A stretch of DNA of 62,016 nt from Candidatus Omnitrophota bacterium (GTDB lineage: Bacteria; Omnitrophota; Gorgyraeia; Ghiorseimicrobiales; Ghiorseimicrobiaceae), in assembly GCA_030681595.1 (NCBI GenBank), contig JAUXSB010000036.1, positions 1-62,016 of the forward strand. Direction: 5' to 3'. The position numbers and the translations under genes were made by a program. The notes under the pieces were generated by a model. It had not been told where the DNA came from, searched no databases, and was given only the letters and a program-made list of their open reading frames with translations. The first letter of the stretch is position 1. The number at the start of each line of letters is the position of its first letter. Below are positions 8,053 to 34,573 of the stretch, piece after piece.

Positions 8053-8053
8053 C

Positions 8054-16589: not shown

Positions 16590-18428
16590 TTACTCGCTCA
16601 ACCCAAGCCATTGGGTGCCGTTCCAAATTAATTCCAAAACATCATCATTGTCCAACGCCCTGTTAGCTCCTATATCAACATTGCCGCCGTTTTGTACAGT
16701 TATTGGATCCAACAGGCTTAGATCTTTACATCTTAAGATTAAAAGGTCTCCCTGACTTTTTCCATTTTCCAGAGTAATAGTTTGGTCACTACCGCTTATA
16801 TTATTAAGAATAATGTGGCTTGACGGCGAATACACCGGAGATCCTGAAGTTTTGCCTGCCGGATATACTATTTGGCCGCTGGCTGTTATATCAACTGTTA
16901 TCGGCTCAAAGGTGATTTTTTCCTTGCCGGTATATTTTGTGTTTACACCCAAGTCGTCTATCTTATTTGTGGCAAATGCTGCACCGGTTATATAATTAGT
17001 TACCAGGTAATTATTGTCGGAATTGGAAGGAATCTTTATCCCATATCCTGTGCCGACAGAATCATAGATTAAATTTCCGGAAATCAAATTATTATCATAC
17101 TTATCGTCTGCTGCTCCTGATGCCCCATCCACGAAAATACCATTGAAAGCGCCTGTTTGGCCATTATCATAAAGCGCGTTTCCGGAAATAAGCTGGCCTA
17201 CTCCGGCGTTAAACAAGATACCCTCATGCCGGTTATTGGCAATCACGTTATTGCTGATTATTGAATAATTGGGAATTTTCCCCCATGGCGAATCAGGAAG
17301 CCCCGGATTAACATCTTTATCCCCCCATAAAGCAATCCCTTCTCTTGCGCCGCCGGTTACAGAGTTTCCAGATACAATAGAACGGTCGCCATCAGCCCAG
17401 ATGCCGCCGGTCTTATTAGCGGAAACAATATTATTAGAAATTATATTGTTCGTGCCCGCGTCCCAAAGAGAGGCATATATTTCAGATGGATCATCTTCTG
17501 GAGCTCCGCCAACATCTCCACCAATGAGTATATTATCGGAAACAATGTTATTCTGCGAACTTCGTCCGAGATACAGTTCACCCTCGCTGCAGCGGCTAAT
17601 ATAGTTATGAGAAACGATGTTATTGCTGGAAGTGCCGACCAGCTCAAGGCCATCGGCGTTTTCGCTAGGATTACCCAAATCAATATGTGCGTTACTAATA
17701 ATATTATTGTTGGAGTTCGTACAATAAATACCCGCTCTGCCGCCTTGCGTGCCTCTTATCCAAACTTTATCAATTTTAGAGTAAGTTACGTTATCAAAAT
17801 ATATACCGGCGGATTTCGTCTCGCTGCCGTCAAGCTGAAGTTGAGAGATTAAAAGATTACTCGCCGAGGTAGCGTTGATAATGTAGTATTGTGTTTCGGC
17901 GGCACTTCTTTTTTTAAGTATTGTCCCATTGCCTGCGCCAATCAAGGAGATATTGTTTCTATTTAAAATAATCCCCGCGTTATCTTGTGTCTGGCCTGAT
18001 TGCATAGTAATATCGTAAGTGCCTTCTAACAAATATACTGCGCCGCCTGAGGCAGGACAAGCGGCAATTGCCGCATTAATCTTTACCTGATCATCCGTGC
18101 CGGTACATTGATAAGACGCCTCTGCCTTGTTTTTATCTAAAGAGTCGCTGGCGGCGACAATGATAGTGGCGACGTTCATAGGAAGAGCGATGGTATTCCA
18201 TTGGGCCGCGTCTGAAATATATACGTCATTCTCGGTAGTATCATAATAAATCTGGCCTTCCGGGCCGGCGGGGCTAGGGGCACTTGTCTTTGGCGTTAAA
18301 TATAAGCTAGGCGTATCTATGTCGCCGTCAACGGATAGCTTCTGGGCAAAGGCAGAAGAAACACTGCCGGCAACCACTAACCAGTAACCAGTAACCAGTA
18401 AAATTGTTGTTAGTCTATTTAGCTTCAT
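16590..18428 (-). CDS. secreted right-handed parallel beta-helix repeat protein, paralog 2
   Basis: The ORF is open to 18455, but MKLNRLTTILLVTGYWLVVAGSVSSAFA (start 18428) is a typical signal peptide. Blocks SYQCTGTDDQVKINAAI, VYLLEGTYDIT, LIGAGNGTIL, LLISQL, NNIISN repeats, TKYTGKEKITFE, and a C-terminal GDLLILR...LIWNGTQWLGL. Confidence 0.8.
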   Translation of the reverse strand: MKLNRLTTILLVTGYWLVVAGSVSSAFAQKLSVDGDIDTPSLYLTPKTSAPSPAGPEGQIYYDTTENDVYISDAAQWNTIALPMNVATIIVAASDSLDKNKAEASYQCTGTDDQVKINAAIAACPASGGAVYLLEGTYDITMQSGQTQDNAGIILNRNNISLIGAGNGTILKKRSAAETQYYIINATSASNLLISQLQLDGSETKSAGIYFDNVTYSKIDKVWIRGTQGGRAGIYCTNSNNNIISNAHIDLGNPSENADGLELVGTSSNNIVSHNYISRCSEGELYLGRSSQNNIVSDNILIGGDVGGAPEDDPSEIYASLWDAGTNNIISNNIVSANKTGGIWADGDRSIVSGNSVTGGAREGIALWGDKDVNPGLPDSPWGKIPNYSIISNNVIANNRHEGILFNAGVGQLISGNALYDNGQTGAFNGIFVDGASGAADDKYDNNLISGNLIYDSVGTGYGIKIPSNSDNNYLVTNYITGAAFATNKIDDLGVNTKYTGKEKITFEPITVDITASGQIVYPAGKTSGSPVYSPSSHIILNNISGSDQTITLENGKSQGDLLILRCKDLSLLDPITVQNGGNVDIGANRALDNDDVLELIWNGTQWLGLSE

Positions 18429-18490
18429 CTCTGCCTCGTTTTTAACGCATAACACACTTGCCCGCCGAAGCTTTGTGGCGGGTAGCGCGG

Positions 18491-20371
18491 CTAATTATCC
18501 GCATGGACCAACTCAAGCCATGCCGTGCCGTTCCAGATAAACTTTGAGGTAGTGTTTTTGCTCCATGTCCGGTTATTATCACTACCGCGAATCTCAAAAT
18601 TACTACCGCATATTGATTCATCTCCCACTCTGATAGAATAAGACGATGTGTTTTCTATAATGAGCAGGTCGCCTAATGCCTTGCCGTCATCAATTGCGGC
18701 AAGGCCGGGAAGGGGTAGCGTAGGATCGCCTAGCGTAACATCTGCGCTTCCGTTAACACTTAACCGAAGATAAGTTACTGGACCGGTGCCGGTAGAAGAA
18801 AGGTCAATTTTGCCCCCATTAACAACGGTATAAGTAACCGGCTCAAGGGTAATTTTGTCTTTACCGGTGTATTTGGTGTTGGTGCCGGAGTCATTTATTC
18901 TTCTATCGTATCCGCTACCAACGTATCCTGCGCCGTCAATATAATTGCCTGTAAGATAATTATTAGCACTTTCGGGAGAAACAATATATACGCCATACTT
19001 GCCATTAGCGCCGCCTGCGGCTTTATATATCCGGTTGGAAGAAATCGTATTATCATCAATTCCCGACTCAAGCACAATACCAAAATAGTTCGGCTCGTAA
19101 ATAATATTTCCGTAGATTGAATTACTACCGGCGCTTGACCTCCAAATATAAACCCCAGAATTTCCTGCTTCCTCTATAATATTATTATGGATCAAGTTGT
19201 TCTTAGCATATTCAATCAGAATACCCTGACCCATGGTATCTGTATTGTTAAATTTAATTATATTGCCGGAAATAATATTGTTATCGCAAGGGTAGTATGT
19301 AGAAGGGGCGAGATAATAAGCGAGGAGCTTAATGCCGGTTGCGCCGCCGGTAGTCATATCAATGGAATTATTAGAAATAACGTTACTGGTAGTAAGTTGA
19401 AGAAAAATACCGGTTGAGCCTACCCCCCCAATGGTATTGGCAGAAACAGTATTGTTTGTGCTGGCTGGCGGGTTAGCCATGCTGCCGTAGATTAATACCG
19501 CGAAGCCATTGCTGTAAAACACATTATTATGAATAGTGTTATTGGAAGATCCGACAAGAGATAACCCATTATTATTATTATAAAAATGATTATCGCAGAC
19601 AATGTTCATATTAGAAGAGGAAATAATTACAGCTTGATCTCCTCCGCCAAGTATATTTTCTACCCATACCGCGCTAATCTTAGAATTGGTTACACCGCTA
19701 AAAGACATACCTGTATTAGTACCCCCAAAATCGCCACTGCCGTCAATTCTAAGCTGGGAAATAAGAATATTACTGATATTACTTGCTTTAATAACGCCGT
19801 CTATGCCTTCGAGAACTTGTTTTAGCACTGTGCCTGCGCCGGTGCCGATTAGGGCCTTACCGGAATCCGTGGTGCCACTGGCACCGGTATTATCAAAATT
19901 TATCGAGCCCGATATATTATAAGTCCCTTCCAAAAGATAGATTACTCCCGGTATCTTATTACCTGAAGTATCCACTAATGAATCTATGGCCGCATTTATC
20001 TCGGCTTGGTCGTCTGTGCCGTCACAGATGTAATCCGCGGTTTTATTGGTAAGCCGGGAATCTAAAGCCGGAACTGCGGGGTTGCGAGTTACCCCCACAA
20101 TCCTTGAAGCAATGGTTTTGCCGCCAGCGACTGCATCCCAGCCTGTGCCGTCGGAAACATAAACTTTGTCATTCTGGTAAACCACTCTTCCGCCAGTTCC
20201 GTCTCCCTTTTGAGCGGGAGAAGTTGTTTGCTCAACAAAAGTCGCGGTCTCCGTCTTAAGCTTTCCGCCACTTTCAACGGCAAGGTCGGCGGAAAACAGA
20301 GGAACGAATGACGAAAGGAGAAAGACGAAAATAAAAAATACGCTTGTGCTAATTGATTTACCCGCTTTCAT
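18491..20371 (-). CDS. secreted right-handed parallel beta-helix repeat protein, paralog 3
   Basis: The ORF is open to 20437, overlapping the upstream gene. MKAGKSISTSVFFIFVFLLSSFVPLFSA (start 20371) is the likely signal peptide. Blocks ADYICDGTDDQAEINAAI, VIYLLEGTYNIS, LIGTGAGTVL, ILISQL, TKYTGKDKITLE, and a C-terminal GDLLIIEN...FIWNGTAWLEL. Confidence 0.8.
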   Translation of the reverse strand: MKAGKSISTSVFFIFVFLLSSFVPLFSADLAVESGGKLKTETATFVEQTTSPAQKGDGTGGRVVYQNDKVYVSDGTGWDAVAGGKTIASRIVGVTRNPAVPALDSRLTNKTADYICDGTDDQAEINAAIDSLVDTSGNKIPGVIYLLEGTYNISGSINFDNTGASGTTDSGKALIGTGAGTVLKQVLEGIDGVIKASNISNILISQLRIDGSGDFGGTNTGMSFSGVTNSKISAVWVENILGGGDQAVIISSSNMNIVCDNHFYNNNNGLSLVGSSNNTIHNNVFYSNGFAVLIYGSMANPPASTNNTVSANTIGGVGSTGIFLQLTTSNVISNNSIDMTTGGATGIKLLAYYLAPSTYYPCDNNIISGNIIKFNNTDTMGQGILIEYAKNNLIHNNIIEEAGNSGVYIWRSSAGSNSIYGNIIYEPNYFGIVLESGIDDNTISSNRIYKAAGGANGKYGVYIVSPESANNYLTGNYIDGAGYVGSGYDRRINDSGTNTKYTGKDKITLEPVTYTVVNGGKIDLSSTGTGPVTYLRLSVNGSADVTLGDPTLPLPGLAAIDDGKALGDLLIIENTSSYSIRVGDESICGSNFEIRGSDNNRTWSKNTTSKFIWNGTAWLELVHADN

Positions 20372-20417
20372 TGCTACATCCTTTGTTCTATTAATTTTTC
20401 GCTTTTCATTTTTAATT

Positions 20418-21311
20418 TTACTGTATCCCCACCCCACCCATGGTACTTGTGCCCGCGCCGGATATGGTGACTGAACCAGTGATAATACTTCTATTTAAAC
20501 CTGTGTTGCGCGAGGCATCGGTAAAATTATAGCTGTATCCGCCTTTAATAGTTACGCCTTGGCCGATAGTAACGTTTTCCCATGTCAAGGTTTCTGCGGA
20601 AATCCTAATCTCATGGTCATTGGTTGCCGCGGTAAGATTATCTACCGCTGATGGCGACTCAAGCGGAGAATCAAGCGTATCATGCAACCTTTCTATTTCC
20701 ACAAAAGCCCTTGTCGCCGGGATTACCTTTACCAAAGCCAGCGATTTTATTCTGGCGAGCTGGGTTAAAGTTACCTGGTCCTTAATGCTACCGTCGCTAT
20801 TATATACTTTGCCCGTTGACCTTACCCAAAGGCGACCCGGGACAAAAGTATTAGCACTAGCTACGGTCTTACCAAATGCTATCTTCACCGTATACTTACC
20901 GACAGAATTTGCCGCATCGGGAAAATCCACATCAACATAAAAATCTTGGTAATCAGAACGGATATCGCTGGGGTCATCCGGGTCTGTGCCGGCGGAAGAC
21001 GGACTAGGCACTGCGGCGGCCACCCTATTAATCTTATTGTTAGAATTAGCTACGGTGCCGTTAGCCGCGCCGCCTGTCCCATCTGCCCAGCTTTTATCTT
21101 TGTCATACTCGCAGGATAAATCAATAAACGCCTGCTCAAGGCCGGCTCTGGCGATATATTCAGCAGAGCCTGTAGCCATTTCATGCTCCGCTCTCTTGCG
21201 CTCGCTGATAGTCATCGCCACATAGGCGGTCAAAAGGGCGCTTACCATCGTTACTACGATGATCGCCATAATTAACGCCATACCCTTATTGTTCTTTCTT
21301 GGTTTATTCAT
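20418..21311 (-). CDS. PilX-like minor pseudopilin
   Basis: 297 aa. N-terminal KGMALIMAIIVVTMVSALLTAYVAMTI hydrophobic helix typical of the PilX_N domain. Lies in a pseudopilin gene row. Confidence 0.6.
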   Translation of the reverse strand: MNKPRKNNKGMALIMAIIVVTMVSALLTAYVAMTISERKRAEHEMATGSAEYIARAGLEQAFIDLSCEYDKDKSWADGTGGAANGTVANSNNKINRVAAAVPSPSSAGTDPDDPSDIRSDYQDFYVDVDFPDAANSVGKYTVKIAFGKTVASANTFVPGRLWVRSTGKVYNSDGSIKDQVTLTQLARIKSLALVKVIPATRAFVEIERLHDTLDSPLESPSAVDNLTAATNDHEIRISAETLTWENVTIGQGVTIKGGYSYNFTDASRNTGLNRSIITGSVTISGAGTSTMGGVGIQ

Positions 21312-21319
21312 CTCTTATG

Positions 21320-21384
21320 CTCCAAGCTGCATGCCACAGGCTACAAGCTAAAAGCATGGAGCTTGAAGCCTGAAGCTTGTGGCC
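21320..21384 (-). repeat. hairpin built from CAAGC/GCTTG words
   Basis: ctccaagctgcatgccacaggctacaagct-aaa-agcatggagcttgaagcctgaagcttgtggcc. Same family as 7231-7274 and 16499-16537. Confidence 0.75.
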
Positions 21385-21389
21385 TAAAA

Positions 21390-22058
21390 TTAGTTCCTAA
21401 AATCCACCCTTGCGGACATGGGTACGCTCAAAGCGGGAATATTACCCCTTTGCATTGCTTTGCTTGCGATTACGGTTATGGTCAAAGAATTTCCGGATAA
21501 GGTAAACTGTACACTGCTAATATCGTTGGCTAAAATCCTTCTTTTAGATATATCCAGGCCTCCTCCTGACGAAAAATTATCCCTGATAAACTGGTTTGGT
21601 TTACTGTCAGTACCTACATAATACTTAAGCTGGCCGTTTAGGTTAGTCCCAGATTCGCCTCCATCGCCCCAGACAATATTGCCTAAAGCATCTATCCCTT
21701 GAGACCCCTTTAGCGGTATCATAAAAGCTATTTCGCTTACCAAAACACCCTCTGAAAAAGGAACATTATAGGCAGGGGGCGGGCTAGGATTCAACGTAGC
21801 GGTATCGTATACCCGCGCCTTGCTGGAAAGGCCAAGCTCGCCAACCATCTTACTTAAGGCCTGATTTGCCTGCGCGGAAAGATAAGCTTTAGTAGTACCC
21901 ATACTCAGCGAGATATCATAAATACGCATTGCGCCGAAGGTAACGCCGGAAACAATGGTGAGGATAGAAACGGTCACCAGAATTTCCATAAGAGTAAATC
22001 CTCTTCTTCGTTTAGCGTTTAGCGTATAGCGTATAGCGTATAGTAAAGAATAAATCAT
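21390..22058 (-). CDS. pseudopilin with prepilin-type N-terminal cleavage/methylation domain
   Basis: ...AKRRRG/FTLMEILVTVSILTIVSG is the class III signal peptide (G|F, Glu at +5). It has an unusually long 20-aa leader, MIYSLLYAIRYTLNAKRRRG. Confidence 0.8.
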   Translation of the reverse strand: MIYSLLYAIRYTLNAKRRRGFTLMEILVTVSILTIVSGVTFGAMRIYDISLSMGTTKAYLSAQANQALSKMVGELGLSSKARVYDTATLNPSPPPAYNVPFSEGVLVSEIAFMIPLKGSQGIDALGNIVWGDGGESGTNLNGQLKYYVGTDSKPNQFIRDNFSSGGGLDISKRRILANDISSVQFTLSGNSLTITVIASKAMQRGNIPALSVPMSARVDFRN

Positions 22059-22063
22059 TTTAC

Positions 22064-23623
22064 CTACTCTCTCCCCAAATAAACCTGTGACGGATAGCCC
22101 CGGCTAGCAAGTATCCCGGTAACGTGCACCGGCGAATCTAAAAAGCCGTTTCCGTTAACGTCTTCTGTTTCCGCGCCGGCTCCAAAAGTATCCAATCCGC
22201 CATTTAATGCCTTAGGCAAATCTTCACTGGCATATCCTTGCTTGCCATTGTCTTCGCCGATAATTCTTCCTTTGTTATCCCGAAAAGCGACCGTGATATC
22301 TACCTGATACATCCGGTCCGCGCCGTATGACATCCAATTATTCCCGGTAACTCCGCCGCCGAGTATCCAAAGCCTGCCATAAAAAACAACCGCGTCAAAG
22401 CCACCGGCTGCCCAGGAAGGAACAGCGGAAAGAATCCATTTTATACCATCCGAGGAATACCAAATTTGCCTAAGGTTAGTAGCGCCATCATTACCGCCGA
22501 CAACCCAGATTTTTCCGTCCAAGACAACCGCCCGATGCATGTATCTCGGGATCCAGGCAGCGTTGGCTACCTGCGTCCAGCTTACCCCATCTGAAGAATA
22601 CCAAACATCATTAAGATAACCGCTACTGCCCTTACCGCCTAAAACCCAGATTTTGTTATCAAAGACCACCGCGGCATGATGATATCTCGCGCTCCAGGCA
22701 GCGTCGGCAACCCGTGTCCAGGTCGCTCCATCTGAAGAATACCAAACATCATTACGGTAGCCGCTAGTATCCCGGCCGCCGAATACCCAGATTCTCCCAT
22801 CATATACAAGTGCGGTATGCCCGTCTCGCGCGGTCCATCCTGCGTTAGAAGTTTTCGCATACCATGCCTGCTTGCCATCAGCTAAATCGGCATCACTAAC
22901 CTCCGGCGTATACCAGACATCATTTAACAGGTTTCCCCAGCCCATATCGCCGCCAAGAATAAAAATTCCATTATCAAAATTCACGGCGGGAAAAGAGAAT
23001 CTGCCGGGCCATATGCCTGAACCCAGCGGAGTAACATCAAAAACTAAGGTTTGCACCCAAGCCCAAGTCTTAGCATCGAAATAATGACGGTTATCATAAA
23101 CGATACCGCACTCATTGCCGCCAAGTACCCAGATTTTTGCACCGGTTGTGCTATCACCTTGCGTTACTACAGCGGCGGGATTATAAATATAGGCATCAAC
23201 AGTAAGATTCGGGCCTGCTGTCCAGGTATCATAAATATCCGTAAGCCTGATATTCCCCATGGCGTATTTATTATTTGCGCTATCGCGCAGTGGAAAAATC
23301 CGATTTATATAGAGCATCTCTGCCGTGTCTCCGTCGCCGTCAATATCAGTTACGTCCATTTGATTTGTATCATACCAATCAAAAAGCTTGCGGAAATTCA
23401 TTGCCCGCATTTCCTCCAGCTTCGCCTTTGCTGCCTGTAAAACTGTGGATTGCTTCTGGGTAGTTTCGCTTAAATTTTGGGTAACATTAAAAGAAGTTAA
23501 TGTGGCGGTAAGAAAAACGATCAAAATACCCATAGAAGCAAGGGTCTCAACGAGGGTAAAACCGCTTCTTCGTTTAGCGTATAGCGTATAGCGTATAGCG
23601 TATAATAATAGGCCCGCAGTCAT
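22064..23623 (-). CDS. pseudopilin carrying a large Kelch-type beta-propeller insertion
   Basis: Leader MTAGLLLYAIRYTLYAKRRSG/FTLVETLASMGILIVF (prepilin motif). Then about six Kelch-like blades, e.g. DGRIWVFGGRDTSGYRNDVWYSSDGATWTRVADAAWSARYHHAAVVFDNKIWVLGGKGSSGYLNDVWYSSDGVSWTQV... Asp-rich loops DIDGDGD and EDVNGNGFLD. Confidence 0.8.
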   Translation of the reverse strand: MTAGLLLYAIRYTLYAKRRSGFTLVETLASMGILIVFLTATLTSFNVTQNLSETTQKQSTVLQAAKAKLEEMRAMNFRKLFDWYDTNQMDVTDIDGDGDTAEMLYINRIFPLRDSANNKYAMGNIRLTDIYDTWTAGPNLTVDAYIYNPAAVVTQGDSTTGAKIWVLGGNECGIVYDNRHYFDAKTWAWVQTLVFDVTPLGSGIWPGRFSFPAVNFDNGIFILGGDMGWGNLLNDVWYTPEVSDADLADGKQAWYAKTSNAGWTARDGHTALVYDGRIWVFGGRDTSGYRNDVWYSSDGATWTRVADAAWSARYHHAAVVFDNKIWVLGGKGSSGYLNDVWYSSDGVSWTQVANAAWIPRYMHRAVVLDGKIWVVGGNDGATNLRQIWYSSDGIKWILSAVPSWAAGGFDAVVFYGRLWILGGGVTGNNWMSYGADRMYQVDITVAFRDNKGRIIGEDNGKQGYASEDLPKALNGGLDTFGAGAETEDVNGNGFLDSPVHVTGILASRGYPSQVYLGRE

Positions 23624-23633
23624 CCTAGCTCCT

Positions 23634-23674
23634 AAAATAAAAATGCCATCTGCCGAAGAATTCTAGCAAATGGC
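23634..23674 (-). terminator. intrinsic terminator forming the expression platform of the riboswitch candidate
   Basis: Minus strand: GCCAUUUGCU-(10-nt loop)-GGCAGAUGGC followed by AUUUUUAUUUU, immediately before the SD AGGAG (23629-23633) and the ATG at 23623. Confidence 0.65.
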
Positions 23675-23694
23675 TTCTTGTGTGCATTGCTTCC

Positions 23695-23780
23695 TTCGGC
23701 AATTCAGCCATCCGCCAACGTACTGTGGTGGATCTGTAATTTTGCGCCCCCTGATTACTCAGGGTTTGCCTTTTCGAGAA
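23695..23780 (-). promoter_or_regulatory. candidate c-di-GMP-I (GEMM-I) riboswitch aptamer
   Basis: Minus strand: AAAAGGCAAACC CUGA-GUAA-UCAG GGGGCGCAAAAUUACAGAUCCACCACAGUACGUUGGCGGAUGGCUGAAUUGCC. It has the GGCAAACC core, a 4-bp helix capped by a GNRA tetraloop, the GGGRCGCAAA junction and a second bulged helix, as in the V. cholerae Vc2 aptamer. Confidence 0.65.
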
Positions 23781-23808
23781 ATTTATATTATATTGATTTT
23801 GCATAAAA

Positions 23809-23837
23809 AGTATAGCATATATTTTATAACTTTACAA
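23809..23837 (-). promoter_or_regulatory. sigma70-type promoter of the riboswitch-controlled operon
   Basis: Minus strand: TTGTAA - 17 nt - TATACT, ~25 nt upstream of the aptamer core. Confidence 0.5.
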
Positions 23838-23875
23838 GGGGTATAATCATAACCTATTATTTTACAACGGGTTAA

Positions 23876-23995
23876 CCCCGTTAGAGATAGCCCCGAAACT
23901 TCGGGGCGTCTATTAAGCTTAAAACTAATCATTGCTTCTTGCTTCCTTATATAACACTTACCCCGTAGATGCATCTCTTGTTATCTCTAACGGGG
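23876..23995. mobile_element. MITE-like element copy a (14-bp perfect terminal inverted repeats CCCCGTTAGAGATA / TATCTCTAACGGGG)
   Basis: 120 bp. Internal hairpin GCCCCGAAACTTCGGGGC next to the left end. Flanked on both sides by TTAA. The right flank supplies the pilC stop codon. Confidence 0.6.
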
Positions 23996-25210
23996 TTAAT
24001 GCCCTAACTTCTTAATAATCTCCAGGATCGGCAAAAACATCGAGAGGGCAATCGTGGCAACTATGCCTCCCAAAAAAATGATTAACAACGGCTCTATTAA
24101 AGACATTAAAGCCCCGATAGCCGCATCCGCTTCACTTTCATAAAAATCCGCGATTTTATCCAACATCGGCGAAATACTACCCGTTTCCTCCCCCACCGTA
24201 ATCATATCTACAACCAGGGGGGCAAAAACGCCCTTGCCTGAGGCTTTAAGCGAATCACCGATTTTTTCACCCCGCGAAACCCGGGCCCTGGCACCCATAA
24301 GCCCTTTTTCTACTACCATATTATCAGCAGTTTTGGCTACTATTTCTAATCCATTAATGATGGAAATACCGCTCTTAACCAAGGTGGCCAAGGTGCGGGC
24401 AAAACGCGCGATCACTACCTTAAGGATAATATTGCCGAACACCGGCGTCTTTAAACACGCCCTATCAAAATTATAGCGGCCGGTTTCGCTACGGACATAC
24501 AGCCTGAGGGCAATAACAATCGCGGCTATCGCTGCCAAAAGATACGGATAAAACCCGCGGATAAGATCGCTTATCTTAATTACTATCTGCGTAGGCAGCG
24601 GCAGTTCGATTTGCAGGGAAACAAACATCTCCCGAAACGATGGGATTACTTTAATAAAAATAAAGGATGTGATTAAGACCGACATAGCAACTACTATCGC
24701 CGGATAAATTAAAGCCCCCTTCAATTTACGGGCGAGCTTATCTATTTCTTCTAAGTAACCGGCCATTTTTTCTAAGATCAAATCCAAGGCACCCCCCATC
24801 TCGCCGGCCTTGACCATATTGACATAGATAGAAGAGAATACGCGCGGATGAGCCGCCATTGCCTCAGAAAGGCTGCGCCCGGATTCAATATTAACCTGCA
24901 GGGAGTTAACCATCTTTTTTAAAGTCTTGTTTGTTACCTGATCATGGATAATGCTTAATCCTTTAACTAGAGGCACCCCGGCTTTAACCAGTGTGGCAAG
25001 CTGGCGAGAAAACACTACCAGCTCATTTAGCTTTACCCCTTTTTCTCTGCTAAGAAAAGACATGCCTTCGGCTTTTATTTCGTTAACAGAGACGATTGTT
25101 ACCGGCTCCTTTCTTAAAAAAGAAATGACGCTGGCACGATCGCGGGATTCTACTTCGCCTTGAATACGCTGGTTTTTGACATTAATAATACTATATTTAA
25201 ACTTGGACAT
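23996..25210 (-). CDS. pilC: type IV pilus / T2SS platform protein PilC (GspF family)
   Basis: 404 aa. Duplicated GspF domains and three TM segments. Motifs LATLVKAGVPL and LATLVKSGISI. Confidence 0.9.
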   Translation of the reverse strand: MSKFKYSIINVKNQRIQGEVESRDRASVISFLRKEPVTIVSVNEIKAEGMSFLSREKGVKLNELVVFSRQLATLVKAGVPLVKGLSIIHDQVTNKTLKKMVNSLQVNIESGRSLSEAMAAHPRVFSSIYVNMVKAGEMGGALDLILEKMAGYLEEIDKLARKLKGALIYPAIVVAMSVLITSFIFIKVIPSFREMFVSLQIELPLPTQIVIKISDLIRGFYPYLLAAIAAIVIALRLYVRSETGRYNFDRACLKTPVFGNIILKVVIARFARTLATLVKSGISIINGLEIVAKTADNMVVEKGLMGARARVSRGEKIGDSLKASGKGVFAPLVVDMITVGEETGSISPMLDKIADFYESEADAAIGALMSLIEPLLIIFLGGIVATIALSMFLPILEIIKKLGH

Positions 25211-25211
25211 T

Positions 25212-26840
25212 TTATCCTTCCGGGGTTACCCGCATAATCTCTTCTACGGCGATTTCTCCTTTTAAGGCCTTCTCTATGGCGTCCTCTCTTAGCGTGCGCA
25301 TGCCGTGCGCGCGGGCGTAAGCTCTGATTTCATCTAACGGTGCCCTCTTTAATATCATCTGCCGCACAACATCATCCACGCTTAACGCCTCCACCACAGC
25401 AACCCTTCCCAAATAACCGCTCTTATTGCAGGCATCGCAACCCGCCCCGCGATAAAGTACGACATTTTTCTCTAAAACAAACGCCGATAAGCCGGCAATG
25501 CTTCCGGTGGGAACCTCATACGGCTCTTTACATTTTACGCAGATTTTACGCGCCAAGCGCTGGGCCGCGACTAAAATTAAAGTGGAAGCAATAAGAAAAG
25601 GCTCAACCTTCATGTCCATAAGCCGCACTATCGCGCTGGGCGCGTCATTAGTATGCAGGGTGCTTAAGATAATATGCCCTGTCAGGGCTGCCTTCATTGC
25701 TATGTCCACAGTTTCATAATCACGAATTTCTCCGACCATTATTACGTCGGGGCTTTGCCTCAATACCGCCCGAAGGGCCGCGGCAAAATTAAGGCCGATA
25801 TCCGGTTTTACCTGTATTTGCGTCAACCCTTTCATCTGGTATTCTACCGGGTCTTCAACGGTAACTAAATGTTTGTGGGGAGTATTTAGCCTGCCCATAA
25901 TGGAATAAAGCGTGGTAGATTTTCCTGAACCGGTGGGGCCGGTCAAAAGAATCATCCCGTATGGCTTGCTTGCTGCCTCTGTAAATGCCTCCAGCGCGTA
26001 AGTAGAAAACCCCAGCCTTCCTAAATCCATAGACATGCTGGTTTTATCCAAAATCCTTAAAACTGCCTTCTCCCCGAAATGAACGGGTAAAATGGATACG
26101 CGGAAATCCACCTCCTTGTCTTTTAATTTTAAAGAGAACCTGCCATCCTGCGGCGTGCGCCTTATGGTTATGTCTAAACCCGACACAATCTTAATCCTGG
26201 CAATGATAGCCGCGGTATTCTCGCGAAATAACGGGGTACGTTCCTGCATAATACCGTCTATACGGAACCTTAAGCGCAACACATCCGAATACGGCTCTAT
26301 GTGAATATCACTTGCGCGTAAATCAATCGCATCTTTAACAATATTATTAACCATGTTGACTATCGCGGCGTCTTGGCTAACCCTGATTATTTCTTTAATA
26401 TCAAGGCCCTCCTCATCAACAGCGGCAGGCTTCCAAATAAGCTCAAGCTCTCTGTCTTTCTTAAGCGTTTCCTCGCCGATTAACAGGTCTATTACCAAAG
26501 AGCTATAATAATCATCCTGCGATTTTTTGATTTGAGGGGCGGTAGCCACCACCGGCTGGATATTGCACTTGGTAATAATCTTGAGGTTATCCAGCACAAA
26601 CACTTCAAAAGGGTCCACCATTGCAACAGTCAAAACCATCCCCATTTTTGCCAAAGGCATAATGCGGTAACTGCGCGCGAGATGTTCGGGAACAGCCTTT
26701 AAAACATCCGTGTCTACTTTATATTTAGCCAGATTTATCGGGGGGAAACCAGAATCTTCAGAAACGGCGATTAATTCCCTCTGTTCTTCGGAGACCTCTT
26801 GTAAATCAACAGCTTTTGGTTTTTTGATTCCTTCTTTCAT
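25212..26840 (-). CDS. pilB: type IV pilus assembly ATPase PilB (GspE family)
   Basis: 542 aa. T2SSE_N-type N-terminal domain, Walker A GPTGSGKST, Asp and His boxes, and the C-terminal CxxC..CxxC cluster (CVKCKEPY ... CDACNKSGY). Confidence 0.9.
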   Translation of the reverse strand: MKEGIKKPKAVDLQEVSEEQRELIAVSEDSGFPPINLAKYKVDTDVLKAVPEHLARSYRIMPLAKMGMVLTVAMVDPFEVFVLDNLKIITKCNIQPVVATAPQIKKSQDDYYSSLVIDLLIGEETLKKDRELELIWKPAAVDEEGLDIKEIIRVSQDAAIVNMVNNIVKDAIDLRASDIHIEPYSDVLRLRFRIDGIMQERTPLFRENTAAIIARIKIVSGLDITIRRTPQDGRFSLKLKDKEVDFRVSILPVHFGEKAVLRILDKTSMSMDLGRLGFSTYALEAFTEAASKPYGMILLTGPTGSGKSTTLYSIMGRLNTPHKHLVTVEDPVEYQMKGLTQIQVKPDIGLNFAAALRAVLRQSPDVIMVGEIRDYETVDIAMKAALTGHIILSTLHTNDAPSAIVRLMDMKVEPFLIASTLILVAAQRLARKICVKCKEPYEVPTGSIAGLSAFVLEKNVVLYRGAGCDACNKSGYLGRVAVVEALSVDDVVRQMILKRAPLDEIRAYARAHGMRTLREDAIEKALKGEIAVEEIMRVTPEG

Positions 26841-26843
26841 TTA

Positions 26844-26990
26844 CCCCGTTAGAGATAGCCCCGAAACTTCGGGGTGTCTACTCTTCGTAATCCTGCTGAT
26901 AAAATTTATGCTTCTATAATCACCAAACCCCGCTTGCTATGAAGAAAAGCGTTATCCCCGCCAGACTGAAGTCGGGCTGGTCTAACGGGG
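26844..26990. mobile_element. MITE-like element copy b
   Basis: 147 bp. The left module CCCCGTTAGAGATAGCCCCGAAACTTCGGGGTGTCTA is nearly identical to copy a. The right end is GGTCTAACGGGG (10-bp inverted repeat). It fills the whole spacer between the MshE-like ATPase stop (26992) and the pilB start (26840). Confidence 0.6.
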
Positions 26991-26991
26991 T

Positions 26992-28212
26992 TCATTTAGT
27001 AGTTACCCTTACCACCTCTTCCATTGTAGTTATGCCCCCCGCCGCTAAGCTCACCGCGATCTCCCGTAAAAGAATCATCCCTTCTTCCCGGGCGCACTTA
27101 CGGATTTCTGATTCGGGAGCGTTAGAGATAATGAGTTTCCTGATATTGGGGCTTACTTCCATAGTTTCTGCCAAGGCGACCCTGCTTTTATATCCGGTAT
27201 TATTACATCCAACACAGCCTTTGGCTTTATACAGCTGCGACACCTCTTTTATTCTCGGGTTTTCCGCTTTAATTCCGGCGGCCACCTCCATGGATACCGG
27301 ATACGGCTCTTTGCATTCGGAACAAAGCGTCCTCAATAAAACCTGGCAGGAAATTAAAAGGCAGGACGAGCTAATCAGAAAAGGTTCCACCCCCATGTCT
27401 CTTAGCCTTATCATGGCGCTGGAGGCAGAGGTGGTATGCAGAGTAGAAAGCAAAAGGTGCCCGGTTAAAGCCGCCTTAACCGCGATATCCGCCGTCTCAG
27501 AATCGCGAATTTCTCCGATAAGAATAATATCGGGGTCCTGTCTTAATATTGAGCGAAGCGCAGATACAAACGTAAGCCCGATGCTCTCCTGAACCGCCAC
27601 CTGATTTATCCCGGATAATTCATATTCAATCGGGTCTTCAACAGTAAGGATATTGGTCTCGACTGAATTAATAAAATTTATTGCCGAATAAAGCGTGGTA
27701 GTTTTGCCGGAGCCTGTCGGGCCGCAGACTAAAATCATGCCGAACGGCTTAATTAGGTTGCGCTTAAATAAAACGAGTGTCCTCTCATCAAACCCCAATT
27801 TATTTATATCTAAAATTATCTTTGATTTATCCAAGACGCGCAAGACTATCTTTTCCCCCATGCTCGTAGGAACTATTGAGACGCGGAAATCCACATCACG
27901 CGCCTGAAACTGCATACGGAACCGCCCCTCCTGCGGCAGGCGGTGCTCGGCAATATCCAGGCCTGCCATTACTTTAATGCGGCTGACTATGCCCGAATGG
28001 AATGAAACCGGCAGAGTTATACGCTCATAGAGGATGCCGTCTATCCTATAACGAATCCTCACCGCTTCAGGGTCCGGTTCTATAAAAATATCACTGGTTT
28101 TCTGGTCTATACCGAGAGCTAAAATTTTGGTCACCGCTTTTACCGTTGGCCCATGCGCAACTATGGACTTAGAAATATCCTGTTCAAGTTTTTTAGATTC
28201 CTCCTGCTCCAT
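26992..28212 (-). CDS. GspE/MshE-type secretion ATPase lacking its N-terminal regulatory domain
   Basis: 406 aa. Walker A GPTGSGKTT, Walker B/Asp box, His box, tetracysteine CSECKEPY ... CVGCNNTGY. The start ATG overlaps the end of the upstream MshEN ORF by 20 nt and has its own SD, AGGGAG. Confidence 0.88.
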   Translation of the reverse strand: MEQEESKKLEQDISKSIVAHGPTVKAVTKILALGIDQKTSDIFIEPDPEAVRIRYRIDGILYERITLPVSFHSGIVSRIKVMAGLDIAEHRLPQEGRFRMQFQARDVDFRVSIVPTSMGEKIVLRVLDKSKIILDINKLGFDERTLVLFKRNLIKPFGMILVCGPTGSGKTTTLYSAINFINSVETNILTVEDPIEYELSGINQVAVQESIGLTFVSALRSILRQDPDIILIGEIRDSETADIAVKAALTGHLLLSTLHTTSASSAMIRLRDMGVEPFLISSSCLLISCQVLLRTLCSECKEPYPVSMEVAAGIKAENPRIKEVSQLYKAKGCVGCNNTGYKSRVALAETMEVSPNIRKLIISNAPESEIRKCAREEGMILLREIAVSLAAGGITTMEEVVRVTTK

Positions 28213-28651
28213 AATTCTCCCTTTGCGCCTTCTTTAATTCTGAAGGCGTAGTAACAAAAATTTTTATCTTCAGGCCCAGGGCTTCCTCTAAGCCCTTAAG
28301 CGAATCTTCATCTAGCGGGTTTAACATCGCCACGGTAAGAATGTTGCCTATCCTGTCTACGGGCATGATATTAAATTTTTCGGCGCTTTCTTGAGGAACG
28401 AGCGTTAGGGTTTCCTCATCGATAGAACAGTTGGCAATCTTGATATAGGGATAGCCCAATTGCATTGCCAAAGCGCTGTAAATTTCCTCCTCGGTGACAT
28501 AACCTAAATCGCTTAAGACTTCGCCTAAAACCTTCCCCTTGCACTTGGTGCGCTGCAAGATTAATGCCTCTTCCAGGCGTTCTTTAGTAATTACGCCTTT
28601 TTCTAAAAGGAGTTCACCAAGCCGGGTTTTTAATCTTCGTTTTGGCGGCAT
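28193..28651 (-). CDS. stand-alone T2SSE_N / MshEN domain protein (predicted c-di-GMP receptor)
   Basis: 152 aa. RLGELLLEKGVITKERLEEALILQ matches the MshEN motif RLGxx(L/V/I)(L/V/I)xxG(L/V/I/F)(L/V/I)xxxxLxxxLxxQ exactly. A second, degenerate copy follows (VLGEVLSDLGYVTEEEIYSALAMQ). Confidence 0.75.
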   Translation of the reverse strand: MPPKRRLKTRLGELLLEKGVITKERLEEALILQRTKCKGKVLGEVLSDLGYVTEEEIYSALAMQLGYPYIKIANCSIDEETLTLVPQESAEKFNIMPVDRIGNILTVAMLNPLDEDSLKGLEEALGLKIKIFVTTPSELKKAQRENYGAGGI

Positions 28652-28662
28652 ATCTTATGGGC

Positions 28663-28816
28663 ACATAACTTACGAACATATGGTGCAGTAAGTTATAAGT
28701 GCGAGTTAGGCCCCACACCCAGATACTTCGAAGTATTTCTTCCTTAAGCTGGGTGTGGGGTTAAATTCAACCAGATAAGTTATGCCGCCGTATAATTAGG
28801 CATCCATAACTTATGC
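28663..28816 (-). repeat. cluster of three hairpins (TATAACTTA words; CCCCACACCCAG/CTGGGTGTGGGG)
   Basis: cacataacttac...gtaagttataagtg (28663-28701). A perfect 12-bp stem at 28711-28722/28749-28760 encloses the palindrome atacttcgaagtat. ataagttatgcc...ggcatccataacttat (28775-28816). Confidence 0.75.
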
Positions 28817-28818
28817 CT

Positions 28819-31800
28819 TTATTTAATTTTCCTGCTTAATACTTTTTTTATCAAGAGCTGCATCTCTTTATTTTTTTCAATCTCAAGCAAACCGGATAAA
28901 ACATCGTCGGAATTTTTAGTGCCTATTACGCCCAGCGCTGACACCGCCTGCCGGCGCAACTCTAAATCTTCATGGTAAAGAAACGACTCAATTGCTTCAG
29001 ACAAACCCTCCTTGCCGAGGTAGCCGGCCAACTCCAGAAGAATCGACAGGTTTTCCTTGTTTTTTTCCTCGGACAAATATTTCTTTACTTTAACCAAGGC
29101 TGTCTCGCCCATTTCTTTTAAGACTGCGGCTACGCGTTTACGCATCGCATATCCCTCAAAAGAATCTTTGGCAATTTTCTTTGCGCTTAAGCAGATATCT
29201 AGCAGCGCATCGCAAGAAGCGCTACCTAAAATCTCAAGTAACGCTTTTACCCGTTTAGGCTCAGCCTGAAAATAATCCAAGATAACGGCAACCAGCATCT
29301 CCAAAAAGTTAACCACTTTTAATGTGCTTTGAATAAAGGTTGTTATCGCGCTATATAGGGCGGTATCTTCGGGAGCCTGAGATTTAAGCCTCTTCTCCAG
29401 GATGCTAAAAACCTCGGCAATAAACACCGCGTAATCTTTCCTAGAAGTCTTCTCTACGACCAAATACAACTCTTCCGGCTCCAGGCTTTTCATAAAGTCT
29501 TCGCTTAGCCATTTTATAATATCTAATATTTCGCTATAAACTTTGGGGTCGGCCTCAACCCTTAATATTTCAAGGAACACCTGGCATCTGCTTAAAATAT
29601 GGGTATCTTTACATATAAATTCTTTAATAATTTTGCTTATTTTTTTATGCGTCTCCAGATCGCTGGCTAAAGCTTTAAGCATAAATGATTGAATCAAGCT
29701 TTTAAACCCCGGGGTATCCTGCCCGTAAAACAGCTCTTCCATAAAGGCGCCGACGAGGCTTAAATCAATTGTCGCAAACTCTTCTTGCGGTAAATCGAGA
29801 AGGGCCTTTAACCTTTTCTCTCTCGCAAGCTTATTCCAACCGGACTTGCTACAAAGCGAGCCGACAGTCTCTTTATCCATCCCTAATTCCGTAAGCTTTG
29901 CCTCGACCAACGGCAGGACCTCCCGTTTTTTAGCCGCGGACGGCGTAGCCTTATCAATTAAATCTTTTACCACTAAAGGGTTATCTGAACCCTCGCGGAT
30001 ACTGCGCTCTATAAGGCTGACGATCTCCTGCGCGGAGAGCTTATTGATAATCTCTTCGGTAATGTTTGTTTTATTGGAAGAGGTTATCTGCGGCTTTAGG
30101 CGGATAAACTTAGCCTTCAGTTTCCAGTCCAATTCCTGAATAACCTTAGCTAAATTCTCTACCGCCTCGGAGGCGGCAAGGCGCTCAACAGGAATTTGCG
30201 CGCTGATTTTTTTTATCGTTTCGGCAAGCACATTAATTTCACCGGTTTTATCTTGCTTTCCGCTGGAGGCGGCAATTTTACTTATAGCCTCCGCAAACTT
30301 CCGCGGCTCCTCGGCGATCTTGGAAAGAAAGCTTTTTTTATCCACATCATCGTGGCCGACCTTACCGAGGAGAAACTCCATCATCATCGCGTCTTCAAAC
30401 TTCTTGCGTGGCCCTGCCCTGCCCAAGCTAGATTTGGCAATTTCTTCATAACTAAACTCATCTATCCTGATATGGGCCAGCCTTTTTTCCTGAATAACCG
30501 CCTTCCATATATTCTTATTCGTCGCTGAGCGCCTTGGCTGGCTAAAATTATCTAAAAATATACTTACTTCTTCTTCGTTAATACCCTGAGTAAATGAAAG
30601 GGATTTTATGTTGCTTTCTACCATAAGAGAAATAAAATCTCCTTCGCCTAATTCCTGAATCTCACGCAAAGAAAAACGCCTGCCGTTTATTACAAGGCTG
30701 TTTCCCGATTCGATAATCTCTAATCTCGGCGTATCTTGCAGGATCAACTCCAGGCTATGGTAAATATCCATCACGAAATTGTTGCGTATAGAGCTACCCG
30801 TGGGGTAAAGCTGAAAATTCTTTACCGCCGACTGGGTCAATTTTATCAGCCGGGATATCTCGACTCGCGTCAGCGCAACCAGCTCTAATTTAATCTCTTT
30901 CTCTTCTCCTGTTTTTATTGCTCTGGCGGCAAATTCCTTGAGGTAATCAACGACTTCTGCCGGATTGAATAGATCCGAGGCCCTTTCTTCTAGGAGGCGG
31001 CCGTATTTGTCGGAAATAACTCCGGCGGCGGCCTTTCCAAAATGCAGCGAAAGATCAGCCGCCACATCGGATAAATCATCCTCGTGCTCTGAGGCCAACA
31101 TCTCGCCTATTTTCTGATGCAGGTTTTTTTGCTCTTCTTCGCTTAACTCGTTATACAGCGCGTCCTGTATCCCGCTGCTAATAAAATTAAATTTGCCGAT
31201 TTTCTCCGACTCTTTTACCAAATGCTTCTTCTTCGCCCGGGCCATTACTTCAAATATGTAACCTTCGTTTTTTTCGCCTAATTTTTTAAGTAAATCGACA
31301 CTAAAGTCTTCTCCGATAACCGCTGCCTGCACTATCAGCTCCTTAGTTTCTTTATCCAGCGTCTTTACCCGCCTCTTAATAGTTTCTTCCAATGAATTGG
31401 GTATATCTATTGCCTCAAGGCCCGCGGCCAGGCCCCATCCGTTATCTTTATAAACTAAAAGCTTATTCTCCGCCAGCGACTTAAATATCTCCTCAATAAA
31501 AGCCGGGTTTCCTTTAGTGATCTCAAAAATAGAGTCGCTTAATTCCTTGATTTGTTTTAAGCCGGGGAACATCGCTTCAATCATCTCACGCGTATCGCGT
31601 TTAGCTAAATCCGGTAACGGTATTTCTATGGCATTTTCGCCGTTATGCAGATATTCTAACAACTGCGCAAGGGCGCTTTTTTCTCCCCGCTCAACAACAG
31701 GTTTGCCTTTTAAGGTAGCTATGGCCAATATTTTTCTTTTCTTCTCGTATTTAATGAGGTAATGCAATAATTCTATGCTGGCGTTATCCGCCCACTGCAA

Positions 31801-32865
31801 ATCATCAAAATAGAGGATCAACGGATTCTTAGAATTTATCGCGATCAACAAATCCAACATTGACTTAAACAGTAACGCCCTTGCTTCTTTGCCTGCCAAG
31901 GACGATCTTGCGCCCTCTATCTGCGGAAGCAATTTAGCCAATTCGGCTAATTCATCTTCGGGGAGAATAGAGATGAGTTCTTGGGCCTGCAGGCTATGCG
32001 GGCGTATATTGCTTAAATAATTATCTAGTGCTGCGGCAAAAAGATAATAAGGGTCTTCCGCATGTTTGTGAGCGCCTTTGGCGGTAAGGACTACCGCCTC
32101 ATTTTTGGCATAATTACTAAACTCTTCCGCTAACCTGCTCTTCCCCGTGCCTGTCTCGCCGTAAATAAGAACGGCGGTTAAAAGGCCCTTGCTTAAAACC
32201 GTACCGCTATATGCCTCTTTAAGCTTCGCCATCTCGGTATCTCTGTCAATAAATTTTGGGCAAGGAAAAAAATCCAGGGCCATCTGGGTAGCCGCGCTCT
32301 CCAGAGTAACTTCCTGCGAATACGAAATTTGGTTTTTCCCTTTTTCCTTAGATAAATAGAGGGCCTTATCGGCAAGGTCTATCAGCTTATCTACCTCGGT
32401 AGAATCAGCCGGGCAAAGAGAAAAACCCATGCTTATAGTCAGGCGTATCTCCTGCCCATCTTTAGCCCGGAAAGATGTTTGGGCTATTTGTTCAACTAAA
32501 CGCTTTCCCAGGCTTAGTCCCGTCTCTTTGTCAACTCCGGGGAGTAATACCATAAACTCATCTCCGGCGTAGCGTATTACCATATCAGTCAGCCTGCGGG
32601 TTTTCTTCAGCGCTTCAGAAAACTGTTTTAAAATTTCGTCTCCGGAAAGATGCCCGCATGTGTCATTTAACTCTTTAAAATTATCTATGTCTATGATAAA
32701 TACTCCCAAAGAATAATCGCTGAATTGCGATTTTTTGATTTCCTGGGGAAGAAACTCGTAGAGGTAATAACGGTTAAATAACCCCGTCAGAGGATCAATA
32801 AAGGTGGGTTTTTCAAAACGGATGTCTTTAACCGGTTCCTGAGGGCGCAATTTCTCATTGTCCAT
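28819..32865 (-). CDS. GGDEF (diguanylate cyclase) - STAND/AAA_16 NTPase - helical/HEAT-repeat protein
   Basis: 1348 aa. N-terminal GGDEF domain (DPLTGLFNR, DIDNFKELNDTCGHLSGD, RYAGDEF with RLTD five residues upstream, which is I-site-like). Walker A GETGTGKSRL and Walker B LILYFDDLQWAD. Long alpha-helical region ending in HEAT-like repeats (EDLELRRQAVSALGVIG). Confidence 0.8.
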   Translation of the reverse strand: MDNEKLRPQEPVKDIRFEKPTFIDPLTGLFNRYYLYEFLPQEIKKSQFSDYSLGVFIIDIDNFKELNDTCGHLSGDEILKQFSEALKKTRRLTDMVIRYAGDEFMVLLPGVDKETGLSLGKRLVEQIAQTSFRAKDGQEIRLTISMGFSLCPADSTEVDKLIDLADKALYLSKEKGKNQISYSQEVTLESAATQMALDFFPCPKFIDRDTEMAKLKEAYSGTVLSKGLLTAVLIYGETGTGKSRLAEEFSNYAKNEAVVLTAKGAHKHAEDPYYLFAAALDNYLSNIRPHSLQAQELISILPEDELAELAKLLPQIEGARSSLAGKEARALLFKSMLDLLIAINSKNPLILYFDDLQWADNASIELLHYLIKYEKKRKILAIATLKGKPVVERGEKSALAQLLEYLHNGENAIEIPLPDLAKRDTREMIEAMFPGLKQIKELSDSIFEITKGNPAFIEEIFKSLAENKLLVYKDNGWGLAAGLEAIDIPNSLEETIKRRVKTLDKETKELIVQAAVIGEDFSVDLLKKLGEKNEGYIFEVMARAKKKHLVKESEKIGKFNFISSGIQDALYNELSEEEQKNLHQKIGEMLASEHEDDLSDVAADLSLHFGKAAAGVISDKYGRLLEERASDLFNPAEVVDYLKEFAARAIKTGEEKEIKLELVALTRVEISRLIKLTQSAVKNFQLYPTGSSIRNNFVMDIYHSLELILQDTPRLEIIESGNSLVINGRRFSLREIQELGEGDFISLMVESNIKSLSFTQGINEEEVSIFLDNFSQPRRSATNKNIWKAVIQEKRLAHIRIDEFSYEEIAKSSLGRAGPRKKFEDAMMMEFLLGKVGHDDVDKKSFLSKIAEEPRKFAEAISKIAASSGKQDKTGEINVLAETIKKISAQIPVERLAASEAVENLAKVIQELDWKLKAKFIRLKPQITSSNKTNITEEIINKLSAQEIVSLIERSIREGSDNPLVVKDLIDKATPSAAKKREVLPLVEAKLTELGMDKETVGSLCSKSGWNKLAREKRLKALLDLPQEEFATIDLSLVGAFMEELFYGQDTPGFKSLIQSFMLKALASDLETHKKISKIIKEFICKDTHILSRCQVFLEILRVEADPKVYSEILDIIKWLSEDFMKSLEPEELYLVVEKTSRKDYAVFIAEVFSILEKRLKSQAPEDTALYSAITTFIQSTLKVVNFLEMLVAVILDYFQAEPKRVKALLEILGSASCDALLDICLSAKKIAKDSFEGYAMRKRVAAVLKEMGETALVKVKKYLSEEKNKENLSILLELAGYLGKEGLSEAIESFLYHEDLELRRQAVSALGVIGTKNSDDVLSGLLEIEKNKEMQLLIKKVLSRKIK

Positions 32866-34327: not shown

Positions 34328-34390
34328 TTTGCGCCCCTTTCTTTAATAATGTATCGTTAATATAATAACACAAAACCCGCTCCGGTCAAG

Positions 34391-34511
34391 CCCCGTTAGA
34401 GATAACCCCGAAGTTTCGGGGCGTCTATCACACATAATTTTATTGATTAAGCCGTTGTTTCTATAATTAAGTGTTGCTGCATAAATGCTAAACAAGGTAT
34501 CTCTAACGGGG
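34391..34511. mobile_element. MITE-like element copy c
   Basis: 121 bp. Perfect 14-bp inverted ends CCCCGTTAGAGATA/TATCTCTAACGGGG and internal hairpin ACCCCGAAGTTTCGGGGC. Flanked by the direct repeat TCAAG on both sides. Confidence 0.65.
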
Positions 34512-34573
34512 TCAAGCAAAAATGCCGGTGAATTGGCTTAGCTTAAATACCGGGGGTGTTTTGCTGTAACTGA

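Follow-up and report, generated by a model that had tools for sequence, protein, structure and literature searches.

The c-di-GMP and pilus locus

The window, i.e., the whole stretch of 62,016 nucleotides that was analyzed, stems from Candidatus Omnitrophota, and its GyrA is 87-89% identical to many proteins from metagenome-assembled genomes (MAGs) of Candidatus Omnitrophota. It additionally encodes dnaA, gyrB, yidC and thrS. The gyrB gene (window 41966-45706) is a reading frame of 1246 aa that is split by an intein, of which the N- and C-terminal splicing regions were detected. Between gyrA and the GGDEF gene lies an open reading frame of 1488 aa (window 34574-39040), which had no NCBIfam match at E <= 1e-5.

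The leader described here is embedded in a cluster that is encoded entirely on the minus strand, in the order GGDEF-family protein, MshEN, T2SSE, MshEN-T2SSE, T2SSF, promoter and riboswitch, and Kelch pilin. A PilQ/GspD-type secretin is also part of the cluster, further on. The protein families were assigned with Pfam, together with NCBIfam for the upstream part:

23996-32865, minus strand: upstream part of the locus, with the cyclase, a stand-alone MshEN protein, a T2SSE ATPase, an MshEN-T2SSE ATPase and a T2SSF protein
28819-32865, minus strand: GGDEF-family cyclase, 1348 aa
28193-28651, minus strand: stand-alone MshEN protein, 152 aa, its reading frame overlapping that of the T2SSE ATPase by 20 nt
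22064-23623, minus strand: Kelch pilin, a type IV pilin-like protein of 519 aa, encoded by the first gene after the leader (N_methyl and Kelch families)
16590-22058, minus strand: N_methyl pilin-like protein (222 aa), PilX_N-like protein (297 aa) and two NosD/beta-helix proteins

The translation of the cyclase gene contains the motif RYAGDEF, thus AGDEF and not GGDEF, and the sequence RLTD, which represents an RxxD I-site at the canonical spacing. The stand-alone MshEN protein has two 24-residue c-di-GMP-binding motifs, RLGELLLEKGVITKERLEEALILQ and VLGEVLSDLGYVTEEEIYSALAMQ, both of which appear to be intact; the definition of this motif reportedly stems from Wang et al. 2016, a study to which PMC12448109 refers. 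The gene order from the cyclase to T2SSF is kept on the contigs L001 and L003 of two relatives, and on both the MshEN protein is likewise split from its T2SSE ATPase. As judged from the translations and the leader, the single locus pairs predicted c-di-GMP synthesis with one protein receptor (MshEN) and one RNA receptor.

The Kelch pilin carries the prepilin N-methylation motif RRSG/FTLVE, followed by a long N-terminal helix. The alignment of orthologs revealed that the Kelch beta-propeller is inserted between this pilin helix and a conserved C-terminal segment, and the AF2 model (mean pLDDT 64.8) has a helix at residues 24-74 and a confident propeller core. Full-length homologs were found only in metagenomes and MAGs, from Omnitrophota and relatives. 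The genes at 16590-22058 are probably co-transcribed with the Kelch-pilin gene; their order is repeated in L001, L003, L004 and L006, and one of the NosD/beta-helix proteins ends in a phage-depolymerase C-terminal domain.

A MITE/REP-like element with a length of about 128 nt also occurs in three intergenic copies in the window (23872-23999, 34387-34515 and 26840-about 26990); it has perfect terminal inverted repeats of 18 nt (TTAACCCCGTTAGAGATA) and an inner hairpin (GCCCCGAAnnTTCGGGGC). The copy that starts at the stop codon of the T2SSF gene is situated just in front of the riboswitch promoter, and another separates the two T2SSE genes. L001 and L011 lack the element at these sites.

A predicted class-I c-di-GMP aptamer in the leader of the Kelch-pilin gene

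The whole 62-kb window was searched with cmscan against 4227 Rfam families, using the gathering thresholds. The search returned five tRNAs and one other match, at 23694-23779 on the minus strand, and a local E-value scan gave the same result. The best model for this match was RF03167 (c-di-GMP-I-GGC, clan CL00126), with 61.3 bits compared to a gathering score of 59 and an E-value of 4.9e-12. Clan competition conceals one more overlapping family of CL00126 that likewise reaches its threshold, so that its score for the window is not shown; presumably, it is RF01051 (gathering score 35). The parts of the aptamer are the following, the last two lines being based on the alignment to the model:

23694-23779, minus strand: c-di-GMP-I (GEMM-I) aptamer, UCUCGAAAAGGCAAACC-CUGA-GUAA-UCAG-GGGGCGCAAAAUUACAGAUCC...GGAUGGCUGAAUUGCCGAAG
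23776-23775 with 23698-23697, minus strand: P1, CG paired with CG, extendable to UUUC/GGAA
23764-23749, minus strand: P2, with a GUAA tetraloop
23741-23701, minus strand: P3, with bulges in the predicted receptor region for the tetraloop, an A (5' side) and GG (3' side)
23770, 23743 and 23699, minus strand: equivalents of the ligand contacts G20, A47 and C92
23746 and 23708, minus strand: predicted equivalents (C23746, G23708) of the interhelical pair C44/G83

G20, A47 and C92 (Vc2 numbering) are the bases that contact c-di-GMP, and their roles as well as the C44/G83 pair have been described (PMC4744006, PMC6140456). The original prediction had been made from the letters alone and had proposed a GEMM-I riboswitch, with all its elements on the minus strand of this leader. 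Reading of the sequence located every one of these elements, and the canonical bases G23770, A23743 and C23699 as well as the score of 61.3 bits bear out the class. The comparison with the covariance-model threshold, which had been suggested as a check, came out positive not only for the window, but also for the L001 ortholog (RF01051, 63.2 bits compared to a gathering score of 35). The GEMM-I core had been thought to include the usual junction. The core is indeed present, but the junction reads GGGGCGC and not GGGACGC, the family consensus, of which the A is highly conserved. On this basis the leader contains a genuine class-I c-di-GMP riboswitch aptamer, with c-di-GMP as its predicted ligand.

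Homologous leaders

The contigs of homologs were gathered for the relatives of the Kelch pilin, and protein-guided scans with an alignment of the pilin N-terminus were performed in addition. Together with the window, four homologous leaders were obtained, and each of them is located directly upstream of an orthologous Kelch-pilin gene:

L001, 7790-7871: pilin identity 84%; RF01051, 63.2 bits
L006, 88-174: pilin identity 39%; RF03167, 64.9 bits
L011, 2748-2879: pilin identity about 45%; 34.3 bits, below the threshold

The low score of L011 is explained by an insert of 53 nt with two 10-bp hairpins (L011 2781-2835), which is located between the C44 equivalent and the G-C closing pair, i.e., between GGGC and GCAAAA. 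The aptamer of L011 is otherwise intact, including P2, P3, G20, A47, C92 and the platform.

The element is absent upstream of the Kelch-pilin gene in L003/L009 (gap of 22 nt), L004 (97 nt) and L007/L008 (164 nt), which have the same gene order. It follows that the riboswitch is an addition that is restricted to a lineage and precedes one type of Kelch pilin. The protein-guided scans added only L009 (contig shared with L003), L010 and L011, and a search for homologs with the pilin N-terminus alone yielded no match. Exact-pattern scans of metagenome and genome contigs for the lineage-specific P3 and junction sequence did not yield a match either. Pattern scans of viral contigs yielded 13 + 1 matches, none of which is a riboswitch according to Rfam; the match on the viral contig L026 is a chance match within a coding sequence.

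Promoter and expression platform

The leader is flanked by a promoter-like site and by the signals for termination and translation. The following features were located:

23809-23837, minus strand: promoter-like site, TTGTAA (23837-23832), 17 nt, TGcTATACT, with TATACT at 23814-23809
23692-23701, minus strand: anti-terminator 5' strand UGCCGAAGGA, overlapping C92 and the 3' strand of P1
23660-23651, minus strand: anti-terminator 3' strand UUCUUCGGCA, consisting of bases of the terminator loop and 3' arm
23645-23674, minus strand: intrinsic terminator hairpin GCCAUUUGCU-A-GAA UUC UUC-GGCAGAUGGC, 13 bp with one bulged A
23674-23665 and 23654-23645, minus strand: terminator arms GCCAUUUGCU and GGCAGAUGGC, read from the sequence
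23634-23644, minus strand: U-run AUUUUUAUUUU, directly 3' of the terminator stem and kept in the four leaders
23633-23629, minus strand: Shine-Dalgarno sequence AGGAG, read from the sequence
23623-23621, minus strand: ATG of the Kelch-pilin gene, read from the sequence

In the consensus scan the promoter-like site had 9 of 12 matches and a TG in front of the -10 hexamer (extended -10). In the window this extended -10 precedes the aptamer by about 30 nt. Promoter-like matches are not rare in the AT-rich spacer, where five were found compared to 2.2 expected, so that conservation is the real argument for a promoter. The sequence TGnTATACT does not differ between the four leaders, in contrast to the -35 hexamer, which is not kept. 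The site fits an extended -10 promoter, with a predicted transcription start near 23800-23804. The promoter-like site TTGTAA-17-TATACT, which had been placed upstream of the aptamer from the beginning, is present, and its -10 hexamer is the same in the four leaders.

The terminator hairpin has an energy of -14.4 kcal/mol and is seen in the minimum free energy (MFE) structures; across the homologs 96% of its cells are paired. A simple terminator scan flagged the orthologous terminators of L006 and L011 (13 pairs including 6 G-C pairs, a loop of 4 nt and a T-run), but missed the hairpin of the window because of its bulged A. The "terminators" that the same simple scan reported on the plus strand are nothing more than the P2 and P3 hairpins read on the complementary strand. 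The original prediction had described a stem of 10 bp and a U-run in front of the Shine-Dalgarno sequence. Its arms and the U-run were recovered, but the stem is longer, extending to 13 bp with a bulged A.

The two anti-terminator strands can form a duplex of 10 bp with -14.3 kcal/mol. All ten pairs are possible in four of four leaders, and the few differences retain pairing (from G-C to G-U and back). A competing pairing that overlaps the 3' arm of the terminator had likewise been proposed, and it is this duplex that was found. Because its 5' strand contains C92 and the 3' strand of P1, the anti-terminator and the ligand-bound aptamer are mutually exclusive. The energy gap between the forced states, calculated for three leaders, was 1.1 kcal/mol (window), 2.8 kcal/mol (L001) and 3.8 kcal/mol (L006). 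Folding showed that the Shine-Dalgarno sequence is free in the anti-terminator state as well as in the terminator state. A helix of AGCAA and UUGCU was considered as an ON-type element and rejected, as it is too weak with 5 bp.

Direction of the switch

The preferred reading is that the leader is a canonical GEMM-I riboswitch with its own extended -10 promoter, within a type IV pilus / type II secretion-like locus, and that it exerts OFF control on the Kelch pilin and the genes behind it by transcription termination. The probability of this reading is roughly 0.72. The OFF direction is likely, but it is provisional and was deduced from the architecture of the leader. At low c-di-GMP, UGCCGAAGGA, i.e., the 3' strand of P1 and its 3' neighbours, would be free, and it would pair with UUCUUCGGCA once that segment leaves the polymerase. 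The anti-terminator would then occupy the terminator loop and the first bases of the 3' arm, which would lead to read-through. Bound c-di-GMP would contact G23770, A23743 and C23699 and close P1. The closed P1 would sequester the anti-terminator strand, the 13-bp hairpin and the U-run would form, and transcription at high c-di-GMP would end about 10 nt in front of the Shine-Dalgarno sequence. As closure of P1 by the ligand excludes the anti-terminator, the predicted logic is OFF.

Folds of growing transcripts were calculated for the four leaders. In all of them the anti-terminator was the MFE helix after ...UUCGGCA had emerged. In three of the four leaders the terminator displaced it only after the emergence of GAUGGC; in the window the anti-terminator remained the MFE helix up to the full length. 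Blocking of the 3' strand of the aptamer led to a modest increase in the probability of the terminator, which rose from 0.909 to 0.999 for the window and to 0.93-0.999 overall. The equilibrium ensembles without ligand already favour the terminator (P = 0.90-0.99), and read-through therefore has to depend on a kinetic trap. In its competition with the terminator the anti-terminator targets the 3' arm and not the 5' arm, an arrangement that is seen less often than the textbook one.

The same aptamer could also be coupled to an ON platform, or could act on translation or RNA stability instead of termination. c-di-GMP more often turns pili on, which counts against OFF control here, and the locus has its own cyclase and MshEN receptor. 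The default could indeed be OFF, since the terminator is favoured without ligand, and positive effects of class-I riboswitches have been found for Vc1 of V. cholerae and Cdi-1-1 of C. difficile (PMC4744006, PMC6200980). However, the 5' arm of the terminator starts about 25 nt past the aptamer and does not overlap with it, so that there is no evident way for the ligand to prevent formation of the terminator. The sole conserved alternative helix is the one between the 3' strand of P1 and the 3' arm of the terminator, which gives OFF logic, and an effect on translation is disfavoured by the unsequestered Shine-Dalgarno sequence in both states. An ON platform or another level of action is thus unlikely. 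In C. difficile the class-I c-di-GMP riboswitches are almost uniformly OFF switches, and the class-II riboswitch of pilA1 is an ON switch (PMC6200980).

Assignment of the aptamer within the clan

RF03167 ranked first among the models for the window (61.3 bits) and also for L006 (64.9 bits), and for the window it still did so when P1 was trimmed (49.1 bits). The aptamer could therefore belong to the c-di-GMP-I-GGC variant, perhaps with an altered ligand; the letters GGC in the name are taken here to denote positions 20, 47 and 92. The difference between the two core consensus sequences that stands out is CGC-G-AA in RF03167 versus CGC-A-AA in RF01051, at the A47 position. The window has an A at this position (A23743), as have all three homologs, and the G47 of the variant is thus absent from all of them. 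In addition, the nearly identical aptamer of L001 is assigned to RF01051. Membership in the GGC variant is therefore very unlikely. The first rank of RF03167 is probably explained by the extent of this model, which covers P1 but not the distal part of P3.

G20, A47 and C92 are invariant in the four leaders, and the positions of C44 and G83 are likewise kept. The presence of A47 together with G20 and C92 indicates a canonical c-di-GMP-I aptamer, in spite of RF03167 as the top model. GEMM-Ib elements, which sense 3',3'-cGAMP, have the same fold, belong to the same clan and also occur near pilus and extracellular-function genes. It is nevertheless highly improbable that the leader is such a sensor, because GEMM-Ib elements have an A at position 20 (PMC6140456), which is a G in four of four leaders, and because the locus carries a GGDEF-type cyclase and an MshEN receptor for c-di-GMP. 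At the level of the sequence, the aptamer of the window is a canonical GEMM-I aptamer, and neither a G47 "GGC" variant nor an A20 cGAMP sensor. Caution is called for in annotation, since taking over the best Rfam match, the "GGC" variant, would give a canonical aptamer the wrong label.

Structural support by covariation

The pairs of the GEMM-I aptamer and of the terminator were counted in an alignment of the four sequences (window, L001, L006 and L011). In total, 98.1% of the pair cells were paired, in contrast to 30-50% with slid partners. Compensatory double changes were observed at ten pairs, comprising six of the six pairs of P2 and four pairs in P3. None of 500 shuffles matched the observed pairing, a result that is indicative rather than statistically strong with n = 4 sequences. 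The three-helix junction of P1, P2 and P3 was recovered in agreement with the model match, which with n = 4 is again indicative.

Instead of a functional RNA, the leader could contain a match by chance, a relic in decay or a small ORF, as might be suggested by an ATG-started frame of 59 aa across the leader (23625-23804) and by the complete lack of the element in L003, L004 and L007/L008. This is hardly credible in view of the match with E = 4.9e-12, the compensatory changes in P2 and P3, and the co-conservation of promoter, aptamer and platform down to homologs with pilins that are only 39-45% identical. As a gene, the 59-aa ORF was rejected, since length differences of 4 nt and 1 nt between the window and L001, in P3 and the linker, break its frame.

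Comparison with known systems

The canonical riboswitch of the window resembles the family RF01051 and the Vc2 riboswitch of Vibrio cholerae in the three-helix junction, the GGCAAACC core, the GNRA-capped P2 and the CGCAAA junction. P3 is likewise bulged, at an A on its 5' side and at two bases on its 3' side, and G20, A47, C92 and C44/G83 are shared as well (PMC4744006). In contrast, the A in GGGACGC is replaced by a G in three of the four homologous leaders, the 3' bulge of P3 is GG instead of AG, and the distal part of P3 differs. Differences are also found in the host phylum, which is Omnitrophota, and in the regulated gene, which encodes a Kelch-propeller pilin. With RF03167 the leaders share a P1 sequence (CACG...CGAAG in L006) and a core that fit the variant consensus, but that consensus has a G at the A47 position, where the window and the homologs have an A.

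The succession of an aptamer and an intrinsic terminator is also found in Cd1/Cdi-1-3 and other class-I riboswitches of C. difficile (flgB, zmpI), which are OFF switches (PMC6200980). These riboswitches control genes for surface appendages and extracellular enzymes (PMC6200980), as would be the case here. In contrast to C. difficile, OFF control is only predicted for the leader of the window, and the operon encodes pilins, pseudopilins and beta-helix proteins, not flagella. Cdi-2-4, the leader of C. difficile pilA1, is similar in that a c-di-GMP-sensing leader precedes a pilin gene and acts on read-through (PMC6200980), but it has the class-II aptamer fold and the opposite (ON) logic.

By analogy with the repression of zmpI, it is plausible that high c-di-GMP would uncouple the adhesin-like pilin and its putative polysaccharide-degrading cargo from the assembly machinery. 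The riboswitch might also belong to a c-di-GMP circuit that is complete within the single locus, but such a circuit is rather doubtful. In it, the AGDEF cyclase would produce c-di-GMP, which would affect the secretion/pilus ATPase via the stand-alone MshEN protein, and the OFF riboswitch would at the same time uncouple the Kelch-propeller tip/adhesin pilin and the depolymerase-like beta-helix genes from those of the machinery. It would represent an incoherent feed-forward arrangement, and relatives with two Kelch pilins, like L001, would switch the displayed pilin variant.

The leader is a new example of a well-characterized riboswitch class, which standard Rfam annotation would detect, and it leaves the knowledge about the class unchanged. 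It is of interest for its host phylum, for the unusual gene that it is predicted to regulate and for the three layers of c-di-GMP wiring: c-di-GMP sensing at the RNA level and at the protein level (MshEN) adjoin a cyclase in one locus. A literature search did not yield any riboswitch described in Omnitrophota; co-mentions of the two terms occurred in three papers, and the published one that was checked concerned unrelated contexts. With this assignment a pilus/secretion locus receives a regulatory annotation that can be tested, in a phylum that is known almost entirely from metagenomes.

Variation at the Kelch-pilin genes

L001 contains two tandem Kelch-pilin genes (6085-9464), which are 47% identical to each other's type. 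The promoter and the riboswitch are present only in front of the second gene; the first one starts 13 nt after the T2SSF gene. The pilus/pilin operons of relatives also contain inserted small accessory genes (L001 4377-4772, L006 2620-3030 and L005 3616-7204), namely genes for 23S_rRNA_IVP four-helix-bundle proteins, a HicA/HicB pair and a HEPN/nucleotidyltransferase pair.

A tandem repeat of the heptamer CTATACG (gene strand) is located where the Kelch-pilin gene of the window codes for the signal peptide (23571-23604), with 4.9 copies and 96% matches. The unit is not a multiple of three, and gain or loss of a copy would thus shift the frame of the Kelch pilin. The repeat may confer phase variation by slipped-strand events on top of the riboswitch control. 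At the same spot of the Kelch-pilin gene, L001 has another heptamer, AAGGATT, in two copies.
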